A stretch of DNA of 56,939 bases, counting the filler, from Bilabrum cf. latius (lineage: Eukaryota), in NCBI GenBank assembly GCA_965178125.1. It is 2 parts of 2 records of this genome, joined end to end, with 100 filler letters (N's around TTAATTAATTAA, not from the genome) between each part and the next. Parts side by side here need not be neighbours in the genome. Positions count along the whole stretch, not along the records: positions 29,025 to 56,939 come from CBCXTV010000022.1; 1 more part is not named here. One strand, given 5' to 3'. How positions within the stretch are numbered: the stretch's first letter is position 1; each line of letters opens with the position of its first letter. Positions 28,925-56,939 of the stretch are shown here, one piece after another. The translations under genes and the position numbers were made by a program. The notes below the pieces were generated by a model. The model did not search any database, had not been told where the DNA came from, and saw only the letters and a list, made by a program, of their open reading frames with translations.

Positions 28925-29024
28925 NNNNNNNNNNNNNNNNNNNNNNNNNNNNNNNNNNNNNNNNNNNNTTAATTAATTAANNNNNNNNNNNNNNNNNNNN
29001 NNNNNNNNNNNNNNNNNNNNNNNN
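28925..29024. other. Assembly gap (N run with TTAATTAATTAA spacer)
   Basis: N runs flanking TTAATTAATTAA at 28969-28980. Confidence 0.97.
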
Positions 29025-32005: not shown

Positions 32006-32994
32006 CATGGCATCACCCTTGCCGTCCACATCACTGCGTCGTGGGATGCTGCTCAAGATAACTCGGCGTCTGTTTAGTCGAGGGCTGTCTTGACTAGGAG
32101 TTTGGCGGTGAAATCCAGGAGTTCCGTCTGCATCGTCAGGCTCTTGCCTTTCTGTACCATATCAAGAGGAGAGGGAAGACATGCAAAACCGACCCGCGAC
32201 TAATTCTATCCTACGGCCAAGCCACCTGCGGCGTCCGCGCGACTGGGCGTGCACGAGAACCGGCGCACTGCACTGCTTGAAATGCCACGCTCCCGAGCGA
32301 AGGGAGTACGTTGTTCTGCAGAACGCTCTAGTCTTGGTGCGCTTGCAGCGGCACTTATCGGTGCGCCGCGGGGAACGGCTCGCGTGGGATTCGGAGGCGT
32401 ACCCGGCCCACGACGGGAGGAGTTCCCCAGTTACGTCTGGAGTGATTGGGGGACAAGGTGGGCATCAAGTCGGCGCCTCCTGAGCGTATCACAGAGGATG
32501 ACGAACCGCCCGCCCCGCTTCGATCCCGACCTCGAAGTGCACTCGAAATCAAGGCGGAACGCTGGAAATCCGCCCCGAAACCCTCCATGTTTGTTGACAA
32601 GGACCCAGGCTGCGCTCCGACAAGCTGACAAACTTCGTCAGCCTCCGAAGGGTCTTCATTAAATATTCAACGCTTCCGGGGTCAATGAGGTAATGCACTA
32701 CCAAAGAGCAGCTGGGCCGTGTGTCGTCCGAGATGACAAAGATCGTGGGCATCATCGATCCAGAGGGCGTCAAAGGCACGGACGACGCGGGCGACATTGA
32801 CCCCGACGGGCTGGAGGTCCTGGACCGCGTCTGGACGCCCCATCCGGAAGTATTCCTAAGCGCTCCCGACGGACGAGACCTTCTCTGTCTGAAATCAGGC
32901 ACCCAACCCTTCCGCACAAGGTGAAGAGAGAACGCCGACGGACAATATCCTCTCTTTTGCACATCGGGCATCCAACCCCTCCGCACAGGTGAGC

Positions 32995-33215
32995 AAGCGA
33001 CGAGTTCCCTTCTCGCGACGTCCGGATCCATTTTGAAGCGTTGGAACAATTCGTGCACGAACTTACCATTGCCGACGAAATCCCGTACGGCTCGGTAGTT
33101 GGTGTTGCAAAGCAGCGCACCAACTTTGGGCATCTGACAATAATGGAGCTCGAAGGCGCGGCGCTCCTGGGCTTTCGCTGCCCAACCGGAGCCGTACACG
33201 ACATTCGGCCTGCTG
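32995..33215 (-). pseudogene. Diverged Rep fragment (motif III region)
   Basis: RPNVVYGSG..KAQER...ELHYCQMPKVGALLC..NYRA.RDFV.NGKFVH.LF.RFKMDPDVARRELVA matches Rep at ~43963-44182 with substitutions. Confidence 0.85.
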
Positions 33216-34876
33216 TCCGGCTCGCACGGTTTGTGGCGCAAAGAGGACGAATGCTCCAACCCGCCGCGCCTGGTAATGGTATGGACGAGCTGGGCGTCAG
33301 TGATCGTTCCTTTTTCCCGGACGCAACGGACCCGATGAAATTTTCGCGCGCTGAGCAGACCCCAAATTTACGATGAAGAAGCCCAAATCCTGCGTCCATG
33401 AAGGCCTTGCGAGGCCGCCTGCTATTGGCAGTCGACGCTCCGGGATCCACTGCGCAATGCAGTTTTGCAGAGCGATGCAGTATGCGCGGGAAGACGGCAA
33501 AATGGATCCGTATCTTTGGGAAGAGGTCTGTGCATCGCACAGCTGCCGCACGGAGAGCTGCTTCCGTTCCACGGCTGGTGAGGGCCCGATGCTGCTCTAC
33601 TCATGCCCCACGGCCACACACTAAGAGGAACGGATTGTGTCAGGATCCCGCCGCAGCATGGGTACGCGGATCTGCCTCCATAGGGACGGACGGGAGGAGC
33701 TGCCGGCGGAGGGCGGGCGGGGGTCCGGCCAAGCCAAGCGGCCAGGTACTTCACGCTCTGCCCTATGGCGCTGGGTTCTGTGAGGCGGGGCCTATCTGTG
33801 ATCCTCGGCTCTGTGAAGGTGCGAAGCGCTATTCACGATTCGACTTCGCCTTACTCCTGGATGAGGCGGCGGAGCTGCGTGCTGGGATCTCTTCCTGTGG
33901 CGTCCGAGCGCGATGGCGAGTGCACGCTTGGCCGTCATAGAGAAAGGCACGGCGAAGTACCACATCTTCGCCACCCACCACATTTCGCCAAGCACCACCT
34001 CGTTGGCAGGCTTCGGGAACGCGAAACGCACAAGTTCTCTTGGTTTCCGCGTTGAGTGTGCCTGACCACGAGCGTCCTTGGCGCCGTCAGCGTGCCTGCT
34101 CTCTGCGTTGATTCGGACGCGTACCCGGCTCGCGTGGGCATGGACCTCCCCAATCCGGCAGAACCGTGAGCTCCTGGCATCCCACCTCTGTCTTAGAAGT
34201 TTTCCGGTTTTTGGCGCAAACCTTCTGGAGCAGACGACAGCAGCGAAAGACCCACCCAAGCTCCGCGGGAAGTGTGATACCTCTACGGTTCCGGCATCTA
34301 CTTGGCCGTGCACATATGCAAGGCGATGCACTACACCTGCGCGTCCGGCTGCACCCGCTTGAACGACAGGTTCCTCTCCATGCAAGTGGTTCCGCGACAA
34401 CAAGGTCGTGGAAGTGACAGACTAGGAGAGTACGCCGGGTTCAGATTCACGCCCATCAGGGACAGGTCCGGGTCCCGCGCTCGCGCTACCGCGTGAGGAG
34501 GCTATGCGCACGTATGAGGAGGGGAGAACTTCGTATAATAGTCTCTCGCAGACTCGAACTTTTGGCTCTCACCGAAGGACGGAATGTTAGCCCTCCGCTA
34601 CTTACGGTGTCTTTAGCTTCCGCCCTACACGTTCCCCGCCCGTGGTCAAGAGGGAGTTTGTCGAGACACGCACCCGCCCGAGAGCTCCGGTCCTCTAAGC
34701 GCTCACGATCTCCCGCCCAGCGCGGTGCGAGCCCGCTTCACCGGGACTTGTCGCGTGCCTACGGAGGTGTCTTTTCCGAACCTGCCACTGAAGACGTTAG
34801 GGAGCGACGGGAAACGGATGCACAACGGTATGCCACCCATGTCCTCGAGGAATCCACCAAGACGTTGTGGCCCGAG

Positions 34877-34940
34877 GTAGTGCGATTTTCGGGAGAAGGA
34901 TTCTTAGTACCTTATAGGGTACCCCCCAGGATCGCACTAC
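34877..34940 (+). promoter_or_regulatory. Stem-loop origin candidate, copy 2
   Basis: GTAGTGCGAT (34877-86) / ATCGCACTAC (34931-40) enclosing TCTTAGTAC (34902-10) and an inner GTACC-N6-GGTAC hairpin. Homologous to 46313-46376. Confidence 0.55.
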
Positions 34941-35261
34941 GTGGGTTTGGGGGGTTGGTCTCCTTTCCTCTTGTTTTCGTGTGCACTCTTCTGCGACCGC
35001 CCCCCCCGGGGAACGGATGCACAACGGTATGCCACCCATGTCCTCGAGAGATCCACCGAGATCCGCACATACCTCTGCGGTGAACAGCACGTTACATGAG
35101 ACCCTGACCGACCCGAGAGTCTCTGCCCTCAGTCTCCACGACTTCCCGCAGGATCCGCCCCGCTCCCACCGACGGCTCCTGCCGTACGTACGACGCACCA
35201 TTTTCAAAAGAGCATTGGCACCCGCTCCTCACCTAAGCGACGATACTGTCGCTGCGGTCCC

Positions 35262-36326
35262 TCACGGCACGCTCTCCGGTCCGCCCGGTGCGAACTCAGA
35301 GTCGTCGTCTGTCGAAACGTGGTCGCTGTGGAAGATGTTGCTCTGGCCGTCTGAGGACACGGCATCCTGCCAGTATCGACGCAACTGCTCCGCCACGTCC
35401 ATGGCCGCATGGGAGCTCAGCGGGATCTGCTCGAAGAGAGCGTTACTGTCGTGCACTGCAAACAGCCTGGCCGCGACGCGATCTTGATGGCAAATTTCGA
35501 GTGTGGCGCGGATCCGGAAACAGTAGCCGTCCGGAAAGTTGCCCTGCATCAACTGGTCCTCCACCGCACACTGCGTGCACCAAATAGACCGCTCGGTACG
35601 TCGTATGTAGCCGGGCCACAGGGAATGCAGCAACGAGTACTGAGCCCGACGCAAGCTCTTCGGGTTGAAGCTGTCCGCCTGCTTGACCCGACTGCAGGCC
35701 TGGCACTTGAGGTTGGTGATCACGGCCGACTGCTCCCCAGCCAAATACCAGATCGTACGCGAGCGCAGCCTACGAGGAATCCACTGGCCCGACTTCCGGG
35801 GCACGACCATCGCCAAGAGCTTCGACTGCGGCGCGTCGATCTGCACCCTCGACCCGCAATCGCTGAGCGTAATGGCGTCGTCGAACACCCACGTGCCGCC
35901 CCAAGCATGACGCCTGCGCTGCTGCCGGGAGCTCGGGTTCGGTACCTCGCGAGGCCTGTCGGAAGGGGGGTCCGTCGGCTGCGGTGGTGTCGGATACCAG
36001 GAGAGAGCGGTCCACGGATTGATGCACGTGGACGTTGCCGCCTCGCGCGTCGCCGGAGTGGCTGAGCTGTCTGGTCGACGAAACGGTGGCGCCCACGCCG
36101 TGCAGGCCGCCACCTGCGCGGGCACATCGGGCAAGAATGCGCCTGCAGGTTCACGTGGCCGAGGTCGGGGAAGCTTCGTCGGGGTCAGGGATCCCATCGA
36201 GGAAGCCGCGTTCGCCGCTGGGATGGTCGTGCTCGAGGTTGACGAAGTCGCGTTCGCCCCTGACATGGTCGTGGTCGAGGTCACGGCATGGCCGCCGAGG
36301 GGTGAGCGCGATCGCGGGGGGTCCAT
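35262..36326 (-). CDS. Hypothetical protein with CxxC...CxxC zinc-finger-like motif
   Basis: 354-aa ATG ORF; CQACSRVKQADSF...WCTQC. Confidence 0.55.
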   Translation of the reverse strand: MDPPRSRSPLGGHAVTSTTTMSGANATSSTSSTTIPAANAASSMGSLTPTKLPRPRPREPAGAFLPDVPAQVAACTAWAPPFRRPDSSATPATREAATSTCINPWTALSWYPTPPQPTDPPSDRPREVPNPSSRQQRRRHAWGGTWVFDDAITLSDCGSRVQIDAPQSKLLAMVVPRKSGQWIPRRLRSRTIWYLAGEQSAVITNLKCQACSRVKQADSFNPKSLRRAQYSLLHSLWPGYIRRTERSIWCTQCAVEDQLMQGNFPDGYCFRIRATLEICHQDRVAARLFAVHDSNALFEQIPLSSHAAMDVAEQLRRYWQDAVSSDGQSNIFHSDHVSTDDDSEFAPGGPESVP

Positions 36327-37885
36327 CCGTTTAGTCTGCGGCCACGAGGCACGCGGCGAGCGTTACCACCGTGGACGCCTCCGTCGACCCCGTGTCCGGA
36401 CGCGACTGGGGCCCTGTTGATGAGCGCATCGTGCGGGAGAGGCTGCTGCGGACTGCTGATGAAGCGGAGCTGGTCGACAGACGGAGCATCGCTGGAGATG
36501 TCCTCCATGTCACACTCAAACAAGCGCCGTAGGGTCGAATGCAAGCGGCGCCTGCCGCTGGTAATGCCTGTCATATCGAAAGCGCCTTGCCACGAGCCAG
36601 ACGAGAGCACTCTCTTCGTGCACTCAGCGACAACCCTGAGATGGCAAGAGACATCGACATGACCCGCTTCATGACGCGAGCGCTCCTGCATCCACGTCTC
36701 CCGAAGGTCGCGCTTAAGAAGCTGAAAGACGAGAACGTCCAACGGCTGAAGCAAGAAGGTGAGTCGACCAGGAATAAACACGAGATCCATGCCAAGGCCG
36801 TGTGCGAAGTTCACAATCTCAGTGGAAATGTGTTGGGGCGCGCAGTCAAGTATCACTATTGGATAGATCTCATGCTGAATGTCCATCCAAGAAGCGAAAA
36901 GCCGACGCAGAATGTCGAACATGAGGGACTGCGTCACCCACGAGCTCTCTCGGGCCCAGACTTCCATTCCGTCCACCATTTGGTTCGACGCCCCACGCAT
37001 CAAGCGCTTGCTCAGCCGCGTGTGCTTCCCGATGAGTATACGCGGGAGTCGTCGCTGGATTTCCGGGCAGTCGCTAATGAAACCCAGAAAGGTGTACGAT
37101 CCTCGATTGCTATTCGAGGCGAGGCGCTCCGTGCGCGAACCAAGCGAAGCGGGCTCCGTTCCTGACCTCGGTGCGATGTACCCGCGCATTCCCGGAAAGG
37201 CAAAGGGCACGCTGGACTCATCGAAGTTCACAAAGACGAGGCGGCGGTTGCGGGGCACTCGCGCTTCTGCGAATTCAATCCACTGATAGAAGACACGACA
37301 CGCGAGTCTGACGTAATCGAGTGTTACCGGGGGCTGCTTCTTCAATCGGCCATGCCGAAGCCGCCAACGACGACGGAAGCGCAGGAGCCACTGCCGTCGA
37401 GCCGAGTCCTTCCCCGCGCGAACGCCCATCCTCGCAAGCATGGCGAAAACCATGCTCCCAGTTGGAGCACACCCACGCTGCTCGTTCACATGGTCGATCC
37501 AAGCAACGACAGAAGCCTCGGCGAGAAAGGTCTCCGCGCGTGCCACGGACTCTCGATGACATGAGCGAAGAGGATTTCGCTGCCACGCCTCAGCTGGGCG
37601 CCTCATGGTGAGCGCGACCTCCTCATCGACCTGCCTTTGAAACTCCTCCTGCGAAGCCGTCCGCGTGGAAACCTGTCGACTCTGCAACTGACGAGAGACA
37701 TAGGTTCGAAGAGCTGCCTCGCCACCTCCGGGGTGATGACGAATAACCTCAGCGACCTGTGCCTCCATGGCGCGCAACCACGGATGGCGCAGCCCATTGC
37801 GCGCCCGTTGTCTCGCGTCTCTGAGACACTTCAGCTCCTTACTGATCCGTGCGAGCTGATCCGGCACCGAAGCAGAGGACATCAT
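36281..37885 (-). CDS. pogo/Tigger/CENP-B-like DDE transposase
   Basis: HTH-like WLLRFRRRWRL. Catalytic-type motifs FVNFDES, VILDCAPQH, FIPGRLTFLLQPLDVLVFQLLK. Uninterrupted frame. Confidence 0.88.
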   Translation of the reverse strand: MMSSASVPDQLARISKELKCLRDARQRARNGLRHPWLRAMEAQVAEVIRHHPGGGEAALRTYVSRQLQSRQVSTRTASQEEFQRQVDEEVALTMRRPAEAWQRNPLRSCHRESVARAETFLAEASVVAWIDHVNEQRGCAPTGSMVFAMLARMGVRAGKDSARRQWLLRFRRRWRLRHGRLKKQPPVTLDYVRLACRVFYQWIEFAEARVPRNRRLVFVNFDESSVPFAFPGMRGYIAPRSGTEPASLGSRTERLASNSNRGSYTFLGFISDCPEIQRRLPRILIGKHTRLSKRLMRGASNQMVDGMEVWARESSWVTQSLMFDILRRLFASWMDIQHEIYPIVILDCAPQHISTEIVNFAHGLGMDLVFIPGRLTFLLQPLDVLVFQLLKRDLRETWMQERSRHEAGHVDVSCHLRVVAECTKRVLSSGSWQGAFDMTGITSGRRRLHSTLRRLFECDMEDISSDAPSVDQLRFISSPQQPLPHDALINRAPVASGHGVDGGVHGGNARRVPRGRRLNGWTPRDRAHPSAAMP

Positions 37886-38456
37886 GACGCGTGAGGAACC
37901 GGGCAGAAGATCGCTCACAGCCGAAACGACGCGGACGGACCCGCTGCCAAGCTTCGCACTGCCTGTGGCCTCTGAAGATACCCGGGAGGGATAGGACGCA
38001 GGCGGGGAGCGAGAGCAAGCGAATGCCTTCCTGTCGCTGGAGGAGTGCTCAAAGCTGAAGACGCGCGGGAAGCACGCGCTCTGCTGCGGTCACACTGGCG
38101 CAAGCGAGACAAAACCAGGGAGAGGGATAGACACGTGCACAGCATTGAATACACCGCGCAGCATTGCGAGCGCGGTTTCTCGCCTGCGCTGAGCTGCCAC
38201 TCTGCTCTCGTGCGGACGACATTGGCAACGGCAGCGCGTAGCTGCCAACTGGCCGTGCACGGGTACTGTATCGGCCACGGCAGCGCTGAGCTGCCAATTT
38301 CGGGTCGAGGAGCTCTCCTGAGGAAGACGAGGCCGGGAACTTTCGGCGAACACGCACACCCACCACCGCCCGGCACATGCGACGGCAAGCAATGTAAGGA
38401 ACGACGTTGCGCGATCGAATCTCGACAGGAGGCTCCGATGCAGGAGCTGCCGAGGA

Positions 38457-43101: not shown

Positions 43102-43336
43102 ACTTGCAACCCATCAGGCTGGGTGCCACGTGTGTGTGTGTCAGGCAAGCTCCCAATACTAGGCAAGCACTCCCCCGGACGAACGCGACGGACCACATGA
43201 AACTTGCGGAATGCCCCCATGTAGAAACCACAACACGAAACGCATTGAGGACATTAGACCTTCAGGAGCACCGAAGCGGCTGCCGCTGCGGCTCCGGCGC
43301 TCGTGTGAACCGGACTGAAAACCTCAGCGGCCGGCG

Positions 43337-45622
43337 TCAGCTCTTCTGCACATCCGTGAGAGACAACAAGTCCTCGTCGAAGTAGAGCCGATCTTTCACC
43401 TCCACTTTCGTACAGTTGTTGTCAAGCCACTCGCGGTCCACCGACTCCGTCACGTCAGAGCCCCACGAATTCGTGCAGATGATCAGGGCGATACCGTGGA
43501 GCCACACAGAGTATGCGAGGCTGTTCGTCTTGCTCTGGCCGAGCAGGGAGGGGTCAAGGCCAGCCTGAAAGACCTGTTTGTTGTTGACGACCCACAGGGC
43601 ATTTGCCTCGTCGAACACAATGGCCACATGCCGACTTCGATCGAAGCCACGGAGCGGAGGTTCCACACTGCCCTGACAGTTCACAACAAGAGTCCTTTCG
43701 CTCCCGAAGAGATTCCGCGCGTACACTGTCTTCCCGAACCGGGAGTCCCCCACCAAGACAAGGAACTTGAAGCGCATGTGCGCGAACCACTCCTGACGAT
43801 AGCTCTCGCGCCACTTCTCGACTTCGGGCACCACCTTAAAGGGGCGGAGCTTCGTCACTACGTGCACCGCGGCCTGCGCGCACACCTCTCTCCTCTCCGC
43901 GGCATTCTGTATGTGGAAGTCGATGGCGCGCACTAAGTTCTCGGCGTCCCGACACCGATACGCCACGAGTTCCCTTCTCGCGACGTCCGGATCCATTTTG
44001 AAGCGTGCGAACAACGCGTGCACGAACTTACCATTGACGACGAAATCGCGTCCGGCTCGGTAGTTCGTGGCGCAAAGCAGCGCACCGACTTTGGGAGCTT
44101 GACAATAATAGTGTAACTCCGACGCGCCACGTTCCTGCGCTTTCGCTGACCGCCCGGAGCCGTACACGACATTCGGCCTGCTGCCGGCCCACATGAAATC
44201 CTCCGCCACGCGACAACGATGCGACTTCTCGGAATCCGTCATGCATACGTGGAAGTGCACCAAGTTTGCGGCGTGCTTGCGGTGCAGGGAGAGCTCCATT
44301 TTCATGGACAGCTGAGGCCACATCATCCGCCGCGCGATGTCCTGCGCCCATGCCTTGAAGGTGGCCCAAAGCTCCACATAGAACGGAGACGCGAGAACCA
44401 ATCGCCTCAGGACGCCCCTTGCCACGGATGCCGACATGATGTCGCGCACAGGCTCCTTTTCGACACCCCAGCGACCGTGAAAGGTAAGCATCACGGCCCT
44501 TCCCCGCCTCGTGTTCTTGTCGGACGCAGGCACAATCTCGCCCACGGGCACTGAATGCGATCCCGGATTCCTCACAACTTCGTCCCGCTGCCGCGCAAGC
44601 TCCGGGAAGAGCTCCTCGAAACGAAGCTGGCAAGGAGTGTCCTCCGCCCCCGCAGCCCAGTCTTTCAAGATGCACATGCGGTCACCGGGTACATTGCGAA
44701 GCGCCTCCCTGATGAGGCACCGCTTCCGCTGGTGTGACACCGACGCCGGAAACGCCAACTTGAAATCGTCAGGGAAAACCCGCAGGAGACGATAGATGAC
44801 ACTATCAATAGGACGAGTCGAAGGCCTTCCAGTCGAGCGCTGCGGCCCAGACGCTCCGGCCGCGGCACGAGCCGCGGGCGGAGGTCCGAGATGAGCCGCA
44901 AGACTCGATGCTGCATCGCCCTCAGCAGGGTCGCACTTCTGCCGAAGACGCCGCCTCTTCACGGGGGGCACGAAATCGGGAAGCATGAGCATCTGCGGTC
45001 GCCCCCTCGCATCGGGCGCAGAATCCTCGATGGGCAGAACCCCACGGTAACCTTGACTACTCCGCAGAAGCTGCACCGGCAAAAGTACTTCCTCTGACGG
45101 GGGTTCCAAATTGATGACACCCGCGGCGAGCGCTTCGGAGGCAGCAACGCGGCCAGGAATGTCGCCCTCAACGCTGAGGCCCTCATAAAGGACTCGTTCA
45201 CCCACTACGCCGATCTGCCACTGACCGCTCGACTTGCCGTGGGACAACAAGCAGGCTCCCGGATCGCCCTCGCATTCTGCCTCGCATGCGACCTCGCATG
45301 AGGCCTCAATCATGTCGAGACTGGCGTCGAAGTCGTTCTCCGCATCGTCAAAGCCAAAACTCGGGACAGCGGCCGCGCGCGCTGCAGCCACCGAATTGGA
45401 GACACCGAGGCCACACGAGCACGTTGGGGACGCCTCGGACACCCCTAACAAAGCAGAGGTCGCCGTCGTGGACGCTTCTGACTCCTGGCTTGTGGGGAGG
45501 CCATCGCACGGCACGCAGCTCGCGGAAACCCACGCGGGATCCCAGGAGCAGGATGCGACTCGGGACTTCAGCGACTCGGCAACAGACAAACTCATCGTTT
45601 CGCCCTTGAACGGAGCCGACAT
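43337..45622 (-). CDS. rep: CRESS-DNA-virus-like replication initiator Rep (HUH endonuclease + SF3 helicase) with long N-terminal extension
   Basis: Motif I VMLTFH (~44477-94), motif II VHFHV (~44246-60), motif III HYYCQAPK (~44090-114), Walker A GDSRFGKT (~43727-50), Walker B IVFDE, motif C IICTN. Intact 761-aa ATG ORF. Confidence 0.88.
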   Translation of the reverse strand: MSAPFKGETMSLSVAESLKSRVASCSWDPAWVSASCVPCDGLPTSQESEASTTATSALLGVSEASPTCSCGLGVSNSVAAARAAAVPSFGFDDAENDFDASLDMIEASCEVACEAECEGDPGACLLSHGKSSGQWQIGVVGERVLYEGLSVEGDIPGRVAASEALAAGVINLEPPSEEVLLPVQLLRSSQGYRGVLPIEDSAPDARGRPQMLMLPDFVPPVKRRRLRQKCDPAEGDAASSLAAHLGPPPAARAAAGASGPQRSTGRPSTRPIDSVIYRLLRVFPDDFKLAFPASVSHQRKRCLIREALRNVPGDRMCILKDWAAGAEDTPCQLRFEELFPELARQRDEVVRNPGSHSVPVGEIVPASDKNTRRGRAVMLTFHGRWGVEKEPVRDIMSASVARGVLRRLVLASPFYVELWATFKAWAQDIARRMMWPQLSMKMELSLHRKHAANLVHFHVCMTDSEKSHRCRVAEDFMWAGSRPNVVYGSGRSAKAQERGASELHYYCQAPKVGALLCATNYRAGRDFVVNGKFVHALFARFKMDPDVARRELVAYRCRDAENLVRAIDFHIQNAAERREVCAQAAVHVVTKLRPFKVVPEVEKWRESYRQEWFAHMRFKFLVLVGDSRFGKTVYARNLFGSERTLVVNCQGSVEPPLRGFDRSRHVAIVFDEANALWVVNNKQVFQAGLDPSLLGQSKTNSLAYSVWLHGIALIICTNSWGSDVTESVDREWLDNNCTKVEVKDRLYFDEDLLSLTDVQKS

Positions 45623-46130
45623 TATTTGCGCAAATAATCCTTCGACGAATCGCGGAATGCCTCAAGATAGAACACTTGCCTCCGACACGCAATGCCCAGA
45701 ATCCTTGCTGTTCGAAACACCGAAACTGCTGACACGGGACACACATGAGCACCGAGGCAGCTGAGTCTGCAGCTCGTGCCGCCCTGGGCGAGGTAGTACC
45801 GCTTCCGAGGGAAGGATTCTCGAAGCCAACGAAGGAAAGCATGGCGTTGCAATTAGCACGATCACAAACGCACTTCGGAGCCTGCCAGAGAGGATGACCG
45901 ACCGACCGCCTTCTCGAACATAGAAACCGGCGAATACCACATGAGGCACGACGTTCCAGGGCATCCGAACCTGCGACATACGCCAAAAAGGCCTCGCCGA
46001 CAACCTGAAATGCACGCGAAATCGACAACCGAACGCCCAAAATCAGCCATCGGAACCCCCCCTCGAGGCAGCGCCTTCGGAGACATTTTCGGCCAGCGAA
46101 AAAAATGCGAAACACGACTGGAGGAGGCGA

Positions 46131-46376
46131 GGTAGTGCTCGGTAGTGCTCGTTTCGCGCGGTTTTTACATAAAAAAATGCCGTTTTTCTGGAAAAAAAAG
46201 CTCAAAAACCCCCAGTTTTTGACACGTAGTGCTCCGATTTTCCTGTAAAATGCAGGATTTTTTCACGGTAGTGCTCCCCTTTTTTCCGCTTTCCCCGACG
46301 CCAGGGACCGATGTAGTGCGATTTTCGGGGGAAGGATTCTTAGTACCTTAGAGGGTACCCCCGAGGGTCGCACTAC
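46131..46376 (+). promoter_or_regulatory. Iterons plus stem-loop: candidate rolling-circle origin, copy 1
   Basis: GTAGTGCTC at 46132, 46142, 46226 and 46268. Stem GTAGTGCGA (46313-21) / TCGCACTAC (46368-76) enclosing TCTTAGTAC (46338-46). Lies 0.5-0.75 kb upstream of rep. Confidence 0.6.
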
Positions 46377-46798
46377 GTGGGTTTGGGGGGTCTCCTTTCC
46401 TCTTATTCTCGCGTGCACTTTTCTGCGACTGCCCCCCGGACCTTCCGCGCATATCTGCTCGCTCTGATTCTACGGGGGGGCGGGGGTAATCAAGGATTAA
46501 TGCCAAATTTGTCTTCCTTTCGTGCCCCTCCCGTTTTTCAAAGTTGTGCATGTCGAGTCTGCCCCTCCCGTGCTCTTGACGACGGTGCTCGCGGACTGAG
46601 TGATTTCTGCCAGCACGTCCCGTGTATGCTGTCCGAGTGCGCGACTCCGCTGGGCAGCCGCATCCGCTGCTTTGTGCTGCTCGGGCTATCTGTGTCCGTC
46701 AAGACTGCGCTGTACTTGACGCTCTGCCCTCTTGCGATGGCTTCTGTGACGCGGGGTCTATCTGTAATCCTCGGTTCTCTGAACACGGGAAGCGCTTC

Positions 46799-47269
46799 TC
46801 ACAAGGTCGACTTCGCCTGGCTCGTTGAGGAGTTGGCGGAGCTGCGTGCTGCGATCTCTTCTTTTTGCACCAACTGCAAGATCTTCCTGTCTAGCACGAT
46901 TTGGGCGAGCTCGTCGTCTGTGAGTTTTTTGGCGTTCTTCATGGTGCGCCTTTTCTGCCGGATGGTTTTGCGGATGGCCTTCGTTTTAGCCCGCTGCTCG
47001 AGCTTGAGAGCCTTGCGCTCCTCGGTAAGGCGTGTGATCGCTGCCGTCCACTTGTCGACGAACAAGGGTGTGTCGCCAGGTTCGTCCGTCTTGGCGGTCT
47101 TCTCTAGCGCTTCCATGTGTCCGTCTTTCGGGCAGGGCTCCTCGAAGAACTGCTGCGCATGATCTGGTTTCTGTGATCCTGCCTCCGTCGCTTCGGGTGG
47201 CGCCGCTGCATCCGCATCTCTAGGGGAGTCGAGCCGCATTGCGTCCTCCGGTTCTGCGTCGCTCGCCAT
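46799..47269 (-). CDS. Small protein with acidic N-terminus and basic coiled coil
   Basis: ATG at 47269; ITRLTEERKALKLEQRAKTKAIRKTIRQKRRTMKNAKKLTDDELAQIVLDR. A diverged copy of its 3' end and downstream flank lies at ~33755-33895. Confidence 0.6.
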   Translation of the reverse strand: MASDAEPEDAMRLDSPRDADAAAPPEATEAGSQKPDHAQQFFEEPCPKDGHMEALEKTAKTDEPGDTPLFVDKWTAAITRLTEERKALKLEQRAKTKAIRKTIRQKRRTMKNAKKLTDDELAQIVLDRKILQLVQKEEIAARSSANSSTSQAKSTL

Positions 47270-48144
47270 GGGGTGTGCAGTGAGTTTGCTTCCTGAGCGG
47301 GCTGCTTTTCTGTGCGAAGCTTCTGGCAGTTGCTGTATTCCTGGGCCCAAAAAAAACTCAGCGAGAAGTGCTTTCACATGGAGGTGGTGCGGTAAGAAGT
47401 GCGCGGGTCCTTGTAGACTGAAGTGCTTCCTGCGCAGAATGGGAGAAGTTCCACTGCGGGGTCTCTCAGACGCGTCTGCATGAGGAGGTGGGGGGTGCGT
47501 CATGGTTGCATGCGAGAAGGTGAGCTTCGAGGCGGCGCCTGGGAAAGCCTTTCTGGGTCGTCTGGATGCTGCGAAATTTGCGAAAAAGGGGTCCCAATTT
47601 TGGGCCCGTTTTCGGTGACAATTTCAAGCCTCCCGCATCGTGTTTTCCTCTTGTGTACCCCTTTTTGGGCTCAAAACTGGTCCCGGAAAGTGTGACCTCG
47701 AAACTGCGTCCTTCGCGGTCCTCCCTTTGGCTTCTGGGGCCTCAGGTGTTTCCCTTTTTTCTGTGGGCAGCACTCTTTTTTGCGGAAGGGCGTTCCAGAT
47801 TTTTGTCTGACGATGCCGCTTTAAAAAAGGACTTCTGATGTGGTGCGTGCTGGGTCCTGTCATCTCCAGACTTCCTCCGAGGATGCACACATGAGCGGGA
47901 AGAGGACACACATTGGCAGAAGAACTTCTGGACTTGTGACTCTGAAGAGCTTTGCGACTTTGGCACTGCGTGCTGCCAGCGTTCATGCACCGAGAGCATG
48001 CGGATCTCCACGTGCTATGCGACTTCCGGAGAGAATGGGACCGATGGAACTATGTGACCCTCCAACTCCGGCGCTCGGCGGCCTTCTGCTGTTGCCTGCG
48101 GAGCTTTGTCTCCTCGCAACGCGCTGTTCTGCGGCATTTCGTCG

Positions 48145-50886
48145 TCAGGGCTCGTGCTTTACGCCGGGTGCCGGGGTCAGGCGCGCTCTCTTCGAAGGCT
48201 GTGCCTCAGTCCTGTTGGTGGAGGGCGACCTGGAATAGGATGAGGACGATCTGGAGCAGGATCTCGTGTCCTTGAGGCTTGCGCTCCTCGCGAGCTTCAA
48301 CGAATTCCCGTGGAAGGTCCGCGGAAGGCTCACGTACTCCTCCTCGTCCACGTCATACGGCTCACTGCCCTGCTGCTGCCGCCACTGGTTGATCACAAGC
48401 TTGATGAACGTTTTGCCCCAGCTCCATTCGGAATGACTCTGTGCCTGCTCGGTGAGCCACTTGTTGTATGCGATGTTCACCGTTTTGATGCCCTGCACCG
48501 CGGTGTAGAGATGCCCCGCGTTGAAGCGGTAACCTCGGTCGTCGGCATCCTGAAGGTTGTACCGGAGCCGGGCGTCCGCATGGCCGATGTCGTCCGAGGG
48601 GATGTGCTCGAAGACCTTTTGGCACTGGCGGCTCACGAACGGGTCGACGATGCACTGCGTGCTTTCCGCGTACTTGATCATGTGCCACATGGCTTCCTCG
48701 GCAAACCATTTGGAATAACTCAAGAGGTTATAGGTCTTGTCCTTGGCCCTTGAGTAGTTGTTCGCAATGTCCCCGGGCAGTCCCGCGCGCGCTGGAGTCC
48801 AGCACGGCGCGCCTCGTCTGCACAGCGGGCCGTTCTTGAGGAGCTGCTTCCTGTTGCTCTTGTGCGGAGCGTACAGAGTTCGGATGACGTCTGGGATCAC
48901 GGTGTCCGTGGCAGTCCTGCCCTTAAACATGAAGTGGTTCCAGGCCACGGTCCAGCTCATGATGGGATAGTGCACTTGCATCGGAGGTATGAGCGTGAGG
49001 AGGCCCACGGTTTTCGCCAAGGATGCTCCCCAAGTAATCCAATCATCACTCGGGTTCTTCTCGTCGTGCCTCCTTTTGGGGATCATTTTCGGGAGGAGGA
49101 ACGTTGGCGTTATGATGCGCTCCCCGAACTGCTTCGTGAGGTGCTTCATCATGCCCACCCAGACCTGTCCCAGCGGTTTGGTTGTCATGCGGATCACGAC
49201 GAGGCGCGAGCTGCTGTCCCCCTTTAGGATGTCTTCCAACTCGTTCTGCAGCGCCTGCTTTGCCTCAAGGATGTAGTACTGGATGCTGTTGTCCTTCCCG
49301 TCGTTCATCCACTCCTGCTGCTCCTCTTGGCATCTCCCCTCGAGGCTATGCGCCGCCAAGTCCCTGTCGTCGCAGAGGACAAGCGCGTGGGTTGAGGGTG
49401 GCCACTCCAGCCATGAGGGCAGCTCGGCCCCCGGCATCTCCGTGTGGAGTTTATCGATCCACTTCTGCTTGACTTGGATCCATCGAGCGGTCTGCCATTT
49501 CAAGGGAGGCAGGGTGTTCATCTTGGGCCTCTTCATGGCTACCATGTCGAGCATTCTGTCGAGGGTGGGGATGCACATCATCGGCTGCACCACGTGGATG
49601 CGGATGTCTCCGTACCTCAGGAAGTACGAATACGACCCGCCGCGTTTGTCCTGGAGGAGGTGGACGAACGTGTTGGTTTCGCCGGCGTGCTCGTGAACAC
49701 CGCACAAGTCTTCGTAGGAGATGGGCACGCGCTCTGTTTTTTCCCAGACGAGGACAACCCCCCAACTCAGGGCCGCGCACACGGACATCACGACGGACAA
49801 TGTGTTTAATCGCTCGCCAAGAGTCCAGTCGTCACTCGGGTCGATCATTATGTACGGTTTCATACTGTGCCCTGCATCCGCACTTCGTCGTCCCGAGCCC
49901 CCCCACTCCGTGTCCATGCTCTCGGGAGTCGATGCGAGGACCGGGCTGGCTGCCAGCACAGATGTCATGCGGAGGCAATCTTCCCACTTCCATACCGGCC
50001 CTTGGAACGTGTCGAAGAGGCGGCGCCAGACGCAGCGTTCGAAGCTTCGGTTCGGGATCCGCATCTTCAGGAGCGCCTTCCTCCCCTCCGGGCTGATGAG
50101 ATACCACTTTAGGCCCATGCCGACGTGGTAGGGGACCACAAATGTGTTGTCTACCCAGTGCGCCGGATAGGTCCGCACGTCCAAGAGGCGCTCGCAATTG
50201 TGGATGGAGGTGGAGTTTTCGCGCTGGAGGCTGACCATTCTCGGTGCTTCTGACCCCGCTAACATGGCCATCTGCGTCACCTTGGGGTTTTTCGCGATGG
50301 CGTGAAGAACTACGAGTAGCCGATCCACGCATGCTTCGCGAGGTTCGATATCATCTTCGACAACCATGAGCCATTCCGTCGGCGTGTGGTTCTCAGCCCA
50401 CAGCCATGCGTTTCGATGGGATTGGATCGCCCCAACAGTGGCCGGATTGTATTTGCTCCAGTCCGTTATCTTGCCGGAGAAGATATCCAAGAGGGCCTGG
50501 TCTTTGACGATGTCGCGTCCATCTGGGTCCCTGTCGGTCTGCGGAAACACTGGATTGGGGAGCCGAAGGACCGCTCCCATGTGCTCGTGGAGTTCTCGCG
50601 CCCCTTTTTTTTGTCGCCACTCCTCGAAGCGGGACTCTTCCCTGCAGATCAGCAGACATGTCATCTTCCCGAGGTCCTGGCGATGGTGTCCGAATTGCGC
50701 CTGGAAGCCCGACATCTCCAGAGACGGGAAATGGCATGCGCTGTGTGTCCAGCGGCGATCTTGCACTTCTGCTCCCGAAACTCGCGAATGCAGGATCCGG
50801 GAACATGAGCCTTGAAGGCGGCGGATTTTTGGATGGGGACACCCGCGTCCTCTCTTCGCGAGCTTCGTCCTGATCCGATGCCCCAA
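48145..50886 (-). CDS. Putative glycosyltransferase: GT25-like domain followed by a fucosyltransferase-like segment
   Basis: 913-aa intronless ORF. GAIQSHRNAW and MVVEDDI plus WYLISPEGRKALL fit the GT25 pattern; LGERLNTLSVVMSVCAALSWGVVLVW resembles GLGNRL-type starts. Start codon uncertain. Confidence 0.6.
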   Translation of the reverse strand: MGHRIRTKLAKRGRGCPHPKIRRLQGSCSRILHSRVSGAEVQDRRWTHSACHFPSLEMSGFQAQFGHHRQDLGKMTCLLICREESRFEEWRQKKGARELHEHMGAVLRLPNPVFPQTDRDPDGRDIVKDQALLDIFSGKITDWSKYNPATVGAIQSHRNAWLWAENHTPTEWLMVVEDDIEPREACVDRLLVVLHAIAKNPKVTQMAMLAGSEAPRMVSLQRENSTSIHNCERLLDVRTYPAHWVDNTFVVPYHVGMGLKWYLISPEGRKALLKMRIPNRSFERCVWRRLFDTFQGPVWKWEDCLRMTSVLAASPVLASTPESMDTEWGGSGRRSADAGHSMKPYIMIDPSDDWTLGERLNTLSVVMSVCAALSWGVVLVWEKTERVPISYEDLCGVHEHAGETNTFVHLLQDKRGGSYSYFLRYGDIRIHVVQPMMCIPTLDRMLDMVAMKRPKMNTLPPLKWQTARWIQVKQKWIDKLHTEMPGAELPSWLEWPPSTHALVLCDDRDLAAHSLEGRCQEEQQEWMNDGKDNSIQYYILEAKQALQNELEDILKGDSSSRLVVIRMTTKPLGQVWVGMMKHLTKQFGERIITPTFLLPKMIPKRRHDEKNPSDDWITWGASLAKTVGLLTLIPPMQVHYPIMSWTVAWNHFMFKGRTATDTVIPDVIRTLYAPHKSNRKQLLKNGPLCRRGAPCWTPARAGLPGDIANNYSRAKDKTYNLLSYSKWFAEEAMWHMIKYAESTQCIVDPFVSRQCQKVFEHIPSDDIGHADARLRYNLQDADDRGYRFNAGHLYTAVQGIKTVNIAYNKWLTEQAQSHSEWSWGKTFIKLVINQWRQQQGSEPYDVDEEEYVSLPRTFHGNSLKLARSASLKDTRSCSRSSSSYSRSPSTNRTEAQPSKRARLTPAPGVKHEP

Positions 50887-53704
50887 TTGAGCGCTCGACA
50901 GCAGGAACGATGAGGAACCTCAGTTCTGGTTTCGCATGTTTGCATGGCCTCTCGAAGCATGTCGTGTGCAGACCCTCCAAGCGCCTCGATGTCTGAGCAT
51001 CGCTTTCTCTCCGCACGCTTCGTGCAAGGAATGCAACTCGTGCGTACCATCGTGGAGTCCTGAGTCGTTGGCCGCGGACGCACTACGGGTCACAGAGACT
51101 CGGAAAGGGGAGCATGCCCGAATGCACATCGCGGACGGAATTTGTCCCACGCTATTGAAGGTGGTCACCGGACTCAGACTGCTGCGGTGCATGCTTCGCG
51201 CATTGAATGGAGGCGCGTAAAATCTTGCAGAATGCACAGAGGGGGTCATCCGAGCGGGATCTTTGTGTAGCATCTAGAGCGGCAGATCGTGCGCAGGGGA
51301 GAATCCACACGCGGACTCCGAGGAGTGAGTAAGGCCGGCCCTGGAAGTCGTGCCGCGAAAGCGAATGAGCGCAACATGGCGACTGACGGACGTCGCACGC
51401 TACGTACTTGTGGTCGCCCTCGTCCGGTCGCCCATCCCGGCGAATGGTGGCGCTGCAAGATCTGCGATGCCCGTCCGTGCCCGTCCCTCCTGGACGGCTC
51501 TGCCGAGGATCAGGGACGCTCTGGTTGTTTTTCCCTGAGCACCTGCGTTTCGAAAGCGGTCTTCCGCGTTTGCTACTTCCCCTTCGAACTCCCTGCATTT
51601 TTGGCCGGAAAAGGCAACGAAGACAGGCGTGTGCTCCATAGACTGCTCGGACGAGAAGGTGTGTGCAAGAGCCTTTCCCAATCGTCACGGGGGGTGAACT
51701 GCTGGGTCCGGAATGGATTTGACTCCTGGACTTTTGCGTGTGAAGCGTGAGGTGGGCGTGCTTCGTGGGAGGTTTCCGCATGCGGGGGGACGGGAACTTT
51801 CCTGGGTCGCTGGGCCTGGGACCGGGTAGCGGGAACTCGGGGACTTTCCCCGGGAAATGGATTCACAGAGCGTACGGTGATTTCCCGGGTCGCCCTTCTC
51901 GACCCCGAAGTGGAATTTGGCTTTCGGACCCGAATACAAGCTTAGAAGGAACTTTTTGTCTTCCGCGCCTGCGAAGGTGTGCCACGCGGGCGGTTCTTGT
52001 TCACGCTCTTGCGCTGCAAGCAGTGAACGCGAGGCCGTCTGCGGTTTACGGCTACGTGTCATAGCGCGTCGTAGGATGTCGCGTTCCAAAAGAAGTCTAG
52101 CGGCTGGAGGGCGGTGAGTGAAGTGCACACGTAGTGATCGTGACGAACCGGGCGTCGACACTTGTCCTGGGCGACGTCCGAAACATCTACGCTGCGCTAT
52201 TACGGCCAGTCGTGTACGCTTGGTGTCGGAGGGAAGACCCCTACGGTGTATACGGTTGCCGACGAACATAGTGATGTGGTAAGCGCATTCGGAAGGGGGC
52301 GCACGAACGTGCGAGCAATAGCACGCCATTCCGCGTATCATGGTAGCCTGATATTACATGTGCCGCACAGAATTCTCAATCATTCGCGAGAAGTGTGTGC
52401 GGGGAGTACGCTGGGGTGGATAGAAAAGAGATGTCGTCCGCAGGATGTGTGCTCCCAAGGATTTGCTCGGAAGAATGCGGACGATCGTTTGGAATGCTGC
52501 TTTGCACGCAGACTCTATTTCATAGATATGCCTCCATTCGCTGTGACCCTCGTGCGACCGGCTTCGGACGAGTTCCGCAATCTTCGCAATCATGTGCATC
52601 CCATCTCGAGGTCTGCGGCAGCTTCTCCCGCAGAGGAGCCGCCGTGGGAGCCGCTTAGCATCCCCTCGTCGCAGGGACTTCACGGTACGGTGTTGTTTAT
52701 GTCTCTCGGGGTTTTTGTGATGCTCAGGTGCGCGGCCTCTTGCTCTCTTCGTGACCGATTTCGTTGTCGCAGTGCTGTGGGTCTCCGTAACGGGAATGTG
52801 AGGCAGTCTCGACACCTCGACGAGGTGTCATGCGTCATAAGGATCTGCGCGTCTTTGGTCACGGCAAGAGTGGGCGAGAGTCAAACGGGCAGAAATGATC
52901 GTAGCAGCAGCGCTCACGGGCCCGCGGCTCCGCGGTTCACTCCCGCTTGGGAGGGCTGACCAGCGTGTAGTGGGTGGGTCTTCCGGAAAGCGCCTAGAGA
53001 TACTCATCGCATAGCCTTCCCTGGAACGAGTCCAGCATAGCCTTTTTTTTTTTCGGCGGTCGTGGGGAGATACAATTCTCCCGCTGCGGAAGGCTGCACA
53101 CTCCCGCATCGTGAAGTCAATCACGCAACACCGTGCCGACTCATGTACCGAGACCGATGCATCTTACCGTCAGCGGCGCTGGTGGAAGCCGCGCTGCGAA
53201 CAAGCTCCTCTGCACCAGTTACCCCGCCTTTCCAATTCTCGCGCACCTGAACGTGACTCCTGTGGATACGCAGTTTCTTCACCCAGGGCGGGTGCTTCGC
53301 AACGTCGTGCGTGCCCCCTCTTGCCGTCGCGGGTGCTGAGACGCCTTCATGGTCATAAGGCGCCCTGAGCAGACTGCAGCGCGACTTCCAGTGACATTCC
53401 CGGCAAGAACACACTGCAGCTCACATGCAGCGAGCGGAAGGACCCAATCCCGCGCGTGGGGAGGCGCTATCGTGTTGTGTTGTGTGTCGTGTTTGTGGTT
53501 TATGTCGAGCTTTCGGCACTGCGCGGAATCGGGAATTTCGGGGGTCCCTGGGCCCGGAATCGGGGACCGGAAACTGAGGCAATTTTCGCCGCCAGATGGA
53601 GTGACGGAGAGTACCGTCGTTTTCCGGGTCACCTTTTTCGGTCTCGAAATGGGAATCGGATTTGGGACAGGAATTGAAGCGGAGAAGGGCCACTCTAGGG
53701 CCTC

Positions 53705-54615
53705 CCGGGAGCCCTCTTGGGGCCCCCAAACAGCAAAACAAACCCCGGGGCCCGAACTGTGTCGCCGCAACTTAAATTCCTTGTGTGGATCGGCCATTTT
53801 TGGCCAAATCCTGGGGGGGTCCCCTTCCGGGCCCCCCCAAAACGCTCAAAAAAAAACACCACAACGTGGCGTTTTGCGTCTTTTTAGGGCGGTTTAGGGG
53901 CTCTAAAATCCACTACAACGTGGCGTTTTGCGTCTCTTTGGGGCGATTTAGGGGCTCTAAAATCCACCACAACGTGGCGTTTTGCGTCTTTTTTGGGCGA
54001 TTTAGGGGCTCTAAAATCCACCACAACGTGGCGTTTTGCGTCGTTTGGGGGCTGCCTGGGGCCCATTTTTTCCACCACAACCTCGCGTTTTGCCCTTTTT
54101 GGGGCCGGGAGCCCTCTCGGGGCCCCCAAACCGCAAAAACAAACCGGGGCCCGAACTGTGTCGCCGCAACTTAAAGTCCTTGTGTGGATCGGCCATTTTT
54201 GGCCAAATCCTGGGGGGGTCCCCTTCCGAGCCCCCCGAAAACGCTCAAAAAAAACACCACAACGTGGCGTTTTGCGTCTTTTTTGGGCGATTTAGGGGCT
54301 CTAAAATCCACTACAACGTGGCGTTTTGCGTCTTTTTTGGCGATTTAGGGGCTCTAAAATCCACCACCACGTGGCGTTTTGCGTCTTTTTTGGGCGATTT
54401 AGGGGCTCTAAAATCCACCACAACGTGGCGTTTTGCGTCGTTTGGGGGCTCCTTGGGGCCCATTTTTTCCACCACAACCTCGCGTTTTGCCCTTTTTGGG
54501 GCCGGGAGCCCTCTTGGGGCCCCGAAACAGCCAAAAAAAAGCCGGGGTCCGAGCTGTGTCGCCGCAACTTAAATTCCTTGTGCGGATCGGCCATTTTTGG
54601 CGAAATCCTGGGGGG
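53705..54615. repeat. Higher-order satellite: ~400-bp unit x2.3, each with about three 54-bp subunits
   Basis: GGGAGCCCTC.GGGGCCCC at ~53707, 54107 and 54504. ACAACGTGGCGTTTTGCGTC recurs every ~54 bp. Confidence 0.9.
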
Positions 54616-54695
54616 CCGGCGCAAGTGAAATCCTCCTGAGGTACCACTTCAAGCCCATGCCGACGTGGAGGGGGACCACAAATGCGTTGTCTGCT

Positions 54696-54892
54696 CAGTG
54701 CGCTGGGTAGGTCCGCAGGTCAAGGAGGCGTTCGCAGTTATAGACGTAGGTGGAGTTTGCGAGCTGCCGGCCGACATGCTCATGTGGTGACCTCCGGTCA
54801 CCACATGAGCATGTCGGCCGGCAGCTCGCAAACTCCACCTACGTCTATAACTGCGAACGCCTCCTTGACCTGCGGACCTACCCAGCGCACTG
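54696..54892. repeat. Perfect hairpin, 97-bp arms, 3-nt loop
   Basis: 54696-54792 is the reverse complement of 54796-54892; loop TCC. Confidence 0.92.
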
Positions 54893-55415
54893 CACGACGG
54901 ACCCACTCGGGAAGCTCCCGCGCAGGAGCCACTGCCGCCCGCGTTTGAAGAATATGCGGAGAAATACGAAGCCAAGGACACGAGCATCTCGGGCACCTTT
55001 CCCGACTCGCAGCCGGTTTCAGAGACGACCACAAATCGGCACGAGAAGTGCGCCCGATTTCGTCCCCCGAAAAAAGACACAAATAGGACCCCGCGGAGAT
55101 CCGCATCTGCTCCTCACGCGCGGAACGTGTTTCGGTACGCAAAAAGCGGTCACATGGGAGGCCCGGAAAGCGTCCGGAAAACGGTTCAGAAATAAGTACC
55201 GTCGTTTTCCGGGTCACCTTTTTCGGTCTCGAAATGGGAATCGGATTTGGGACAGGAATTGAAGCGGAGAACGGACCCCAAGGTGTTACCTCTTGCCTCC
55301 ATACGATGCTAGGATCTCCAGGTTTCTCAGTTTTAGGCAGCACTCGAAGGGGAAGCTTCCGACGGCGCGCCTATGACATGCTGCCACCCATCACCGTGGT
55401 CATCTGGAGGACTCC

Positions 55416-55573
55416 GCACCATTCGGAAAACGGCTCGCCCGCCGTGAGTGAACCAGCGATCGCCGTGTGCATCAGTAGGACCCCCGCACCATTCGGAAAA
55501 CGGCTCGCCCGCCGTAAGTGAAATGGCGTCCCGAAGGACCCGTGCTCCTTTTGAAAAACGGCTCGCCCGCCGT
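55416..55573. repeat. Short direct repeat x2-3
   Basis: GCACCATTCGGAAAACGGCTCGCCCGCCGT at ~55416 and ~55487, partial copy at ~55554. Confidence 0.75.
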
Positions 55574-56939
55574 GTGTTCCCGAGATCCTCCAGCCACGCC
55601 ACCAGTCAATGTTCTCGCTCGCCGTTACGTCATGGAGCCCCACGAAGTCGTGCAGATGATCAGGGCGATACCGTGAGCATCCTCCTTCTCCGTCTTCTTG
55701 CCGCCGTCGTACAGCCTGGCCGCGACACGATCTTGATGCCAAAACTCGAGGTTTCGCCGGCGTGCTCGTGAACACCGCACAAGTCTTCGTAGGAGATGGG
55801 CACGCGCTCTGTTTTTTCCCAGACGAGGACAACCCCCCAACTCAGGGCCGCGCACACGGACATCACGACGGACAATGTGTTTAATCGCTCGCCAAGAGTC
55901 CAGTCGTCACTCGGGTCGATCATTATGTACGGTTTCATACTGTGCCCTGCATCCGCACTTCGTCGTCCCGAGCCCCCCACTCCGTGTCCATGCTCTCGGG
56001 AGTCGATGCGAGGACCGGGCTGGCTGCCAGCACAGATGTCATGCGGAAGCAATCTTCCCACTTACATACCGGCCCTTGGAACGTGTCGAAGATGCGGCGC
56101 CAGACGCAGCGTTCGAAGCTTCGGTTCGGGATCCGCATCTTCAGGAGCGCCTTCCTCCCCTCCGGGCTGATGAGATACCACTTTAGGCCCATGCCGACGT
56201 GGAAGGGGACCACAAATGTGTTGTCTACCCAGTGCGCCGGATAGGTCCGCACGTCCAAGAGGCGCTCGCAGTTGTGGATGGAGGTGGAGTTTCCGCGCTG
56301 GAGGCTGACCATTCTCGGTGCTTCTGACCCCGCTAACATGGCCATCTGCGTCACCTTGGGGTTTTCGCGATGGCGTGAAGAACTACGAGTAGCCGATCCA
56401 CGCATGCTTCGCGAGGTTCGATATCATCCTCGACAACCATGAGCCATTCCGTCGGCGTGTGGTTCTCAGCCCACAGCCATGCGTTTCGATGGGATTGGAT
56501 CGCCCCAAGAGTGGCCGGATGGTATTTGATCCAGTCCGTTATCTTGCCGGAGAAGATATCCAAGAGGGCCTGGTCTTTGACGATGCCCTGCATCAACTGG
56601 TCCTGCACCGCACACTGCATGCACGATGGCATCGCGGAGATGAATTTCTCCGCATTCCGGAGAAGCTCCATGGCCCGGTTGATGTCATCCAAGGCCTCGT
56701 CACGCGAAGGACTCTGACGCACGGCGTTGCTGCAGGAGGCGGCGCCTCCTGCAGGAGGCTCGTCGCGTGCGGGAGCACGAGCGTCGTTGTCGCCGTCACC
56801 GGTATTCGCGCCAGCTTTTGGCACCCAACGCTTCGCTTCACCCGCAGAGGAACGGACATCATGGAGACTCCAGCCACGCGCAACCAGGCACTTCGCGCAC
56901 CAGTCCTCAGGGAAGAAATAGCGCAGGTTCTCCTTCTTC

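Follow-up and report, generated by a model that had tools for sequence, protein, structure and literature searches.

Small genomes are the norm in the Cressdnaviricota, and the origin-binding domains of papillomavirus E1 and large T have no known HUH/Tyr nicking site and are catalytically dead. As the available text of the sources cited in this paragraph presents them, CRESS viruses (Geminiviridae, Circoviridae, Genomoviridae) encode a Rep with a one-Tyr HUH domain and an SF3 helicase, and carry repeats and a stem-loop upstream of rep (PMC8780604); in crystals of CRESS Reps, T-4 pairs with A+1 and A-3 contacts T-1 (Tompkins preprint, 10.1101/2020.09.01.278671). pCRESS and the Pyropia pulchra plasmids are capsid-less replicons with a CRESS-type Rep (Kazlauskas 2019, PMC6668415). 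E1 and large T are SF3 helicases with origins in which repeats in both orientations surround a palindrome, and their replication is two-way (PMC12981564). Helitrons combine two Tyr (Y2 HUH) with an SF1B (Pif1) helicase, and Replitrons have an HUQ Rep without a helicase and short terminal direct repeats (PMC10288648).

The stretch of DNA analyzed here, referred to as the window, comprises 56,939 nucleotides of an assembly labeled Bilabrum cf. latius. Positions 29025-56939 contain about one copy of a 27.2-kb unit that is repeated head to tail. Within it, the repeat and hairpin region 46131-46376, 0.5-0.7 kb upstream of rep, is on sequence evidence very probably the replication origin of the element. 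The first-pass annotation had proposed a Rep binding and nicking site upstream of rep. That the site is the cis-acting origin, beside a true HUH and SF3 Rep, is supported by a layout kept in five diverged lineages and by a skew switch that coincides with it. In the reading preferred as a whole, to which a probability of about 0.6 is given, the element would be double-stranded and plasmid-like, existing as a circle or head-to-tail array, with a Rep that works in two modes. It is a Rep and DDE replicon of 14-27 kb and not a CRESS virus; its layout is CRESS-like and the direction read from its composition papillomavirus-like, but by the features compared below it is a member of neither group, and it is neither a Helitron nor a Replitron. 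No description of such Rep and DDE elements was found in the literature searched (titles and abstract openings, with Repbase and subscription papers outside the search). This study adds a comparison of apices across six lineages, a concerted change of repeats and a two-replichore signature.

Rep and the other genes of the unit

Rep is encoded on the minus strand (43337-45622; about 761 residues from the first Met) and joins an HUH domain to an SF3 helicase. Motif I lies at 44494, the HUH motif at 44260, the catalytic Tyr region (Y-x4-K) at 44113, Walker A at 43750, Walker B at 43621 and motif C at 43483. The HUH His pair, the Tyr and the Lys are invariant in all 26 aligned homologs. The fusion of HUH motifs I-III to SF3 is of the Cressdnaviricota type, whereas the Y-x4-K spacing of motif III differs from the YxxK of CRESS viruses. 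The Rep model (pLDDT 91) has CRESS Reps (E 5e-14) and AAV Rep68 as its best Foldseek matches, with papillomavirus E1 and large T also present; TM-scores of these matches are low, at about 0.2-0.3. Named atlas neighbors are mainly CRESS Reps (0.96-0.97), and searches of Pfam, PHROGs and, by sequence, the PDB gave no match. A Rep profile finds 2061 clusters (50% identity, E<=0.001), some of which may be ordinary CRESS Reps. A quick, unrooted tree, built without known CRESS Reps or lineage E, groups the window Rep with its nearest homologs P0001 and P0002 and with L091, away from sister lineages B, C, D and F.

The units measure 13.7-27.2 kb and, judged by size alone, are not small circular ssDNA genomes; they also exceed pCRESS and the Pyropia plasmids. 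Further differences from CRESS viruses are the DDE gene and cargo, the two-replichore skew described below, and the absence of a capsid family among the unit ORFs scanned (15 in PHROGs; Pfam). Set side by side with pCRESS and the Pyropia pulchra plasmids from descriptions (PMC6668415, available text), the element likewise has a CRESS-type Rep and no capsid gene among the ORFs scanned, but carries a pogo-type DDE protein and has a probable dinoflagellate host. With the origins of papillomavirus E1 and SV40 large T, as far as the accessible text of PMC12981564 describes them, it shares SF3 and repeats with a palindrome, and its composition would fit their two-way copying; unlike them, it retains the HUH motif and Tyr in 26 of 26 Reps, and no capsid was found. 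Helitrons and Replitrons are also eukaryotic HUH elements at high copy number. The single invariant Tyr and SF3 fold differ from the former, and the pairing of HUH with SF3 differs from the latter (PMC10288648, available text); no element ends or insertion sites were found.

The pogo/Tigger-type DDE protein (36281-38089, minus strand; DDE_1 E=1.8e-11) is present in all sister lineages, and its D-D-35-D triad is intact in the window and in all five of lineages B-F. It resembles pogo/Tigger in its DDE_1 domain, a weak Tc5 helix-turn-helix and the intact triad, but always stands beside a Rep; no element ends, terminal inverted repeats or target duplications were identified in the stretches examined, which held no host flank. 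A small basic coiled-coil-like protein (46799-47116, minus strand) has no Pfam match at E<=0.01 and no PHROG match; its C-terminal motif recurs by the origin in lineages B, C, E and F, and in D by eye.

The 924-residue cargo ORF (48145-50919, minus strand) is weakly glycosyltransferase-like (PHROG 854, E=0.0015), and its atlas matches to GT25 and GT11 (0.87-0.89) are a lead only. A tblastn homolog lies beside a Rep in metagenome locus L096 (1697-2266), and ORFs resembling this cargo by eye occur on contigs C58 and C61 (L053:1379-2506; L068:2136-3941). A lineage B cargo ORF (L058:3314-4516, minus strand) has no Pfam match and contains an FHGT...GIY pattern, which we take to recall PARP-like ADP-ribosyltransferases.

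Repeats, hairpin and candidate cut site

GTAGTGCTC starts at 46132, 46142, 46226 and 46268 and occurs nowhere else in the window, where 0.2 copies are expected; none of 100 shuffles reaches four, and no 9-mer occurs four times in any of 2000 local shuffles. Repeats 1 and 2 form a tandem with 10-bp spacing (46132-46150, plus strand), followed on the same strand by repeat 3 (46226-46234) and repeat 4 (46268-46276). A fifth variant, GTAGTGC(G), opens the left stem arm at 46313. Four direct repeats, two of them in tandem, and a variant at the stem base are thus exactly where the first-pass annotation had placed them, and are predicted to be Rep-binding iterons. Comparison covered 49 fetched sequences, with some copies present twice and 21 distinct. 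Repeat 3 is identical in all 21, repeat 1 is the one-base variant GTATTGCTC in 24 of the 49, and one of the 49 has neither repeat 1 nor 2; the exact tandem pair occurs at 30 places in the genome.

The stem is formed on the plus strand by 46313-46331, the first 16 bases of which occur exactly 107 times in the genome, and 46358-46376, which ends with an inverted copy of the repeat. At 19 bp it is longer than the 9-11 bp of CRESS viruses (10.1101/2020.09.01.278671, available text). The hairpin held up when both strands were folded as DNA (z = -3.9 plus, -2.6 minus), and after GC correction it ranks second among 1392 scanning windows of the unit. The strongest hairpin is an approximately 97-bp near-perfect inverted duplication at about 54700-54890, derived from a fragment of the 924-residue ORF. 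The T-G wobble pairs of the stem had been said to work only on the plus strand. Three are present there, but one becomes T-A in three of five alleles, so the wobbles do not fix the strand. Covariation among genome copies failed to appear: none of 23 pairs shows a compensatory change among five lineage A alleles, and three of the 23 are broken in some of them. The loop has 108 genome copies within one mismatch, usually two per unit, and all of the 100 listed are exact. Two alternative inner hairpins can be drawn as proposed, but on unequal terms: the AAGG/CCTT form, which exposes the nonamer, has a pairing probability of 0.07, and the core pairs of GTACC/GGTAC have 0.77-0.85. The outer stem is stable.

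Inside the stem, TCTTAGTAC is found at 46338-46346 (plus strand), with a TANTA core at 46341-46345 and, as had been claimed, one mismatch from the CRESS consensus NANTANTAC. Taken alone this resemblance is weak evidence: NANTANTAC with at most one mismatch matches 160 times in the window, and the chance for a 26-nt loop is about 7%. Compared with the stem-loops of Cressdnaviricota, the hairpin is genuine, the nonamer is one mismatch off and exposed in the minor fold, and the apices of the sister lineages fit better.

The T-4/A+1 and A-3/T-1 contacts imply a core TANT^A, and the apex of the element obeys this geometry (10.1101/2020.09.01.278671, available text). The core is TAGTA in lineage A and TATTA in its sisters; because TANTA is its own reverse complement, both strands qualify (TAGTA/TACTA). 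The cut first predicted, TAGT^AC, keeps the T-4/A+1 pair, but the rule fits either strand and no junction was seen there. A cut on the plus strand, TCTTAGT^AC (46344^46345), is on balance probable: of the six fixed CRESS positions five match, the AAGG/CCTT loop has its 3' end at this cut, and the orientation relative to rep is that of AATATT^AA in lineages B-F. The mirror cut on the minus strand, AGGTACT^AA (46342^46341), is a rather doubtful candidate, favored by a terminal AA as in the sisters and by L092 and C75, where the orientation is reversed. Across 74 loci (477 kb) no recombination breakpoint lies at the proposed cut, and in Logan contigs from four runs no junction at the cut is among the matches listed. 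Arm truncation, considered from 107 left against 101 right exact matches, was rejected, as each of the six fetched sites with a left match only proved to have a full hairpin carrying a two-base variant.

A second hairpin (34869-35005, plus strand) is 89% identical, is without the four free repeats and is flanked by a 55-bp direct repeat; it is the only hairpin in Rep-less 15-kb derivatives. Of the two hairpins per unit, only the rep-proximal one coincides with the skew peak. A decayed third copy of the left arm (45790-45820, plus strand; 24 of 31 bases) ends just before the TANTA core, and the next best match in the unit has 20 of 31.

Sister lineages and base-composition skew

The assembly contains five sister Rep lineages (B-F) with Reps 27-31% identical, the window representing lineage A; units of B, C and D measure 13.7, 14.7 and 15.0 kb. 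All carry, on one strand, a DDE gene, a small coiled-coil gene, an intergenic region and rep. In each of B-F, lineage-specific repeats and a hairpin with the apex AATATTAA occupy the interval from the small gene to rep. Such hairpins occur once per 10 kb, compared with 0.007-0.04 expected, and all 17 occurrences of AATATTAA in 65 loci are at such hairpins. The conservation near other rep genes anticipated in the first-pass annotation therefore extends to the repeat and hairpin layout, but the shared apex is AATATTAA and not TCTTAGTAC.

Contig C59 of lineage B contains three repeat copies, one inverted, all differing from C73 and C89 by the same three substitutions, in flanks about 77% identical. 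This concerted change is an indirect sign bearing on the pairing of Rep with its repeats. In the C59 Rep, differences fall in motif I and immediately ahead of it, a parallel that is suggestive only; the C59 apex, AATATTTA, breaks T-4/A+1. Rep-less units retain a hairpin. In C101 (5,947 bp) it is the lineage C origin, C78 and C99 keep only the second hairpin, and C75 has a AACTATTAA apex with its own repeats. Among metagenome loci, most of them too short, one of 13 has AATATTAA with repeats, and L101 and L102, which span the DDE-to-rep interval, have no strong hairpin with AATATTAA. L102 does contain TTAGTACC, oriented alike and upstream of rep but without a strong stem, and this was treated as possible chance. 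In the metagenome relative L099 (2600-2900), several TGTCGCGAC repeats surround an AT-rich apex without AATATTAA. A motif like ACAATATGGGGGAA, absent from the window, lies near the origins of D, E, F and C75 (L069:2579/2635, L055:1440-1597, L052:6368, L088:4050) and is a possible host-factor site. A lineage C unit on C52 (L082:1-2535) holds lineage E-like DNA, in both units examined. The E|C join was rejected as an array end since it recurs in the next unit, which identifies captured cargo and indicates that lineages recombine in one cell.

Cumulative AT skew, computed over 29025-56939, is maximal at 46214, the putative replichore switch. The full-period test covered four of the six lineages (A, B as C73 and C59, C, D) and Rep-less C75. 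The peak lies 127 bp (A), 176 bp (B, C73), 111 bp (C) and 144 bp (D) from the apex, the trough lies at 0.49, 0.45, 0.50 and 0.54 of the unit, respectively, and mean skew over the period is near zero. With 600 bp either side of the apex and A/T runs masked, the apex falls in the best 0.4% (A), 7.6% (B), 2% (C) and 5% (D) of cut points. In A the skew changes gradually (-0.30 to +0.14); in C it is step-like. Four-fold sites number 102A:185T left and 66A:33T right of the site (p=9e-8), with T above A in the DDE gene, a zinc-finger-like ORF and rep on the left, and A above T in the small gene and 924-residue ORF on the right. All these genes are on the minus strand, and the sign tracks the side, not the gene or coding strand. 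For the DDE gene, lineages A, B, C and F have the sign of the side on which it lies, and D and E have values close to zero.

Theta plasmids have skew shift points and rolling-circle plasmids an unshifted bias (Arakawa 2009, PMC2804667, available text), a criterion stated for GC skew in bacterial plasmids and applied here to AT skew. One-way replication should leave no shift point, whereas four Rep-bearing lineages have shifts at the site and mid-unit. The switch is thus an independent mark of the origin, and as a two-replichore signature it favors copying both ways; as far as skew alone can tell, the composition fits the bidirectional replication of papilloma- and polyomaviruses. Such a pattern could also arise from unseen antisense transcription or from a gradient of one-way exposure with an offset.

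These data contradict the one-way, CRESS-style rolling circle implied by the first annotation. In such an origin, as in geminiviruses, Rep would bind the repeats, a cruciform would extrude, TAGT^AC would be cut and one strand displaced. The intact HUH/Tyr site, closest folds among CRESS Reps, the sister apex NAATATTAA, which equals NANTANTAC save for the last base, the position of the repeats between hairpin and rep start and the head-to-tail concatemers all suit it, and one-way strand displacement could also give the gradient-like skew of lineage A. It is nevertheless unlikely, given a zero-centered skew whose sign flips both here and at mid-unit in four lineages, in C as a step, unlike rolling-circle plasmids (PMC2804667, available text), units of 14-27 kb and no junction at the cut.

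It is also conceivable, though very improbable, that the repeats are an operator or partition site of the small coiled-coil protein (or a site of Rep autorepression), the hairpin a promoter or terminator, and that replication starts elsewhere. In all lineages in which it was located, the small gene adjoins the site, the site is 0.5-0.7 kb upstream of rep and the nonamer match alone is weak, yet the skew switch with its mid-unit trough and the conserved TANTA apex at hairpin tips would both be left unexplained.

In the preferred two-mode mechanism, the element's own Rep would bind lineage-specific repeats through its HUH-fold domain, SF3 helicase rings would open the palindrome, and routine copying would send forks both ways to a terminus about half a unit away, as the composition suggests. 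With its HUH/Tyr site preserved, Rep would probably nick the TANTA core as well, for rolling-circle amplification or multimer resolution that would yield concatemers; the DD35D protein perhaps serves integration. Against this mechanism stand a lineage A apex unlike those of the sisters, the C59 skew peak, which lies 551 bp from the apex, and Rep-less C75, which has no skew switch at its hairpin.

Copies, likely host and wider meaning

Units occur head-to-tail in the fetched parts of contig C44 (361 kb), where 27-kb units are mixed with 14-15-kb deletion variants, and on many other small contigs; the best 40 of 108 candidate copies are 97-100% identical. Rep matches are confined to small contigs C44 and up (88 of 88 candidates scored in one search, 107 of 195 in another), as are those of the DDE gene (103 of 103 scored). 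Several small contigs are exact 1.8-2.5-fold repeats, as assembled circles look. No host flank was found in 12 further lineage A stretches, which are 92-100% element DNA. Window positions 1-28924 are a separate contig (C64), have no sequence in common with the unit and are joined to it across an N gap. The junction is a scaffold gap, so the join is not evidence of integration. This gap (28925-29024) consists of two 44-N runs flanking 12 bases, between the element and retroelement-rich C64, which contains Copia-like ORFs (integrase, RT) and an RNase H-bearing non-LTR-like region (14005-23242, 26762-28751, 3970-7595).

Chromosomal tandem arrays, in which host forks fire both ways at each hairpin and Rep and DDE act only in occasional amplification or transposition, would produce an N-shaped skew between origins. 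The mixture of 27-kb and 14-15-kb units on the 361-kb contig, differences of up to 3% between copies and the intact DD35D triad in all six lineages agree with such arrays. The missing host flank, the unrelated sequence at 1-28924 and the circle-like small contigs speak against them, as do the lineage-specific repeats, which suggest a binder encoded by the element, and this explanation is considered improbable.

Positions 29025-33900 and 53600-56939 are a mosaic of short patches taken from other parts of the unit (rep, zinc-finger-like ORFs and the 924-residue ORF), and the deletion junction of the 15-kb variants is copied there too; the mosaic suggests frequent template switching.

Two 18S types are present in the assembly, on small contig C95 and in the main rDNA array (C12). 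The C95 18S matches two dinoflagellate primers (PMC3248434) with 0 and 1 mismatch, and that of the main array matches neither within 3 mismatches. Many small contigs, including the window, may consequently not belong to the main organism. Our inference is that the element comes from a dinoflagellate sequenced along with the main organism, the assembly having captured mostly its high-copy DNA; a dinoflagellate is the most likely host. Of 24 runs listed, ten, with six organism labels and from six studies, contain 85% or more of the words of 43300-48000; the source sample may be among them, and no RNA run is among the holders listed. Logan run depths are summed contig depths and were not taken as copy number. 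The dinoflagellate spliced leader motif gave 0 matches, which is uninformative, and Rfam gave no match on 12 other contig stretches. In IMG/VR, there was no Rep relative among 12 candidates, and six exact 16-mer matches were without Rep, stem and repeats.

It is tempting to propose, as a tentative generalization, that dinoflagellates carry a large undescribed family of high-copy, 14-27 kb nuclear plasmids with a CRESS-like Rep that retains its nicking site, a papillomavirus-like two-way start and a pogo-type DDE integrase. If true, rolling-circle ssDNA replicons and small dsDNA viruses with theta replication would have a living intermediate in these plasmids. Two-way replication driven by a catalytically intact HUH Rep would open to experiment the passage from the nicking domain of ssDNA-virus Reps to the papilloma- and polyomavirus origin-binding domain. 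Eukaryotes seldom have natural plasmids in the nucleus, and good episomal tools are not known for dinoflagellates. The family would offer a ready-made episomal vector backbone for dinoflagellates, and a vector made of the defined Rep and the 300-bp origin can be tested directly. The finding also flags dinoflagellate high-copy DNA within this assembly. Small contigs C51, C54 and C60 (L081, L083, L085) contain long unidentified ORFs of up to 2896 residues, two of the contigs being alike, and are possibly further high-copy elements.
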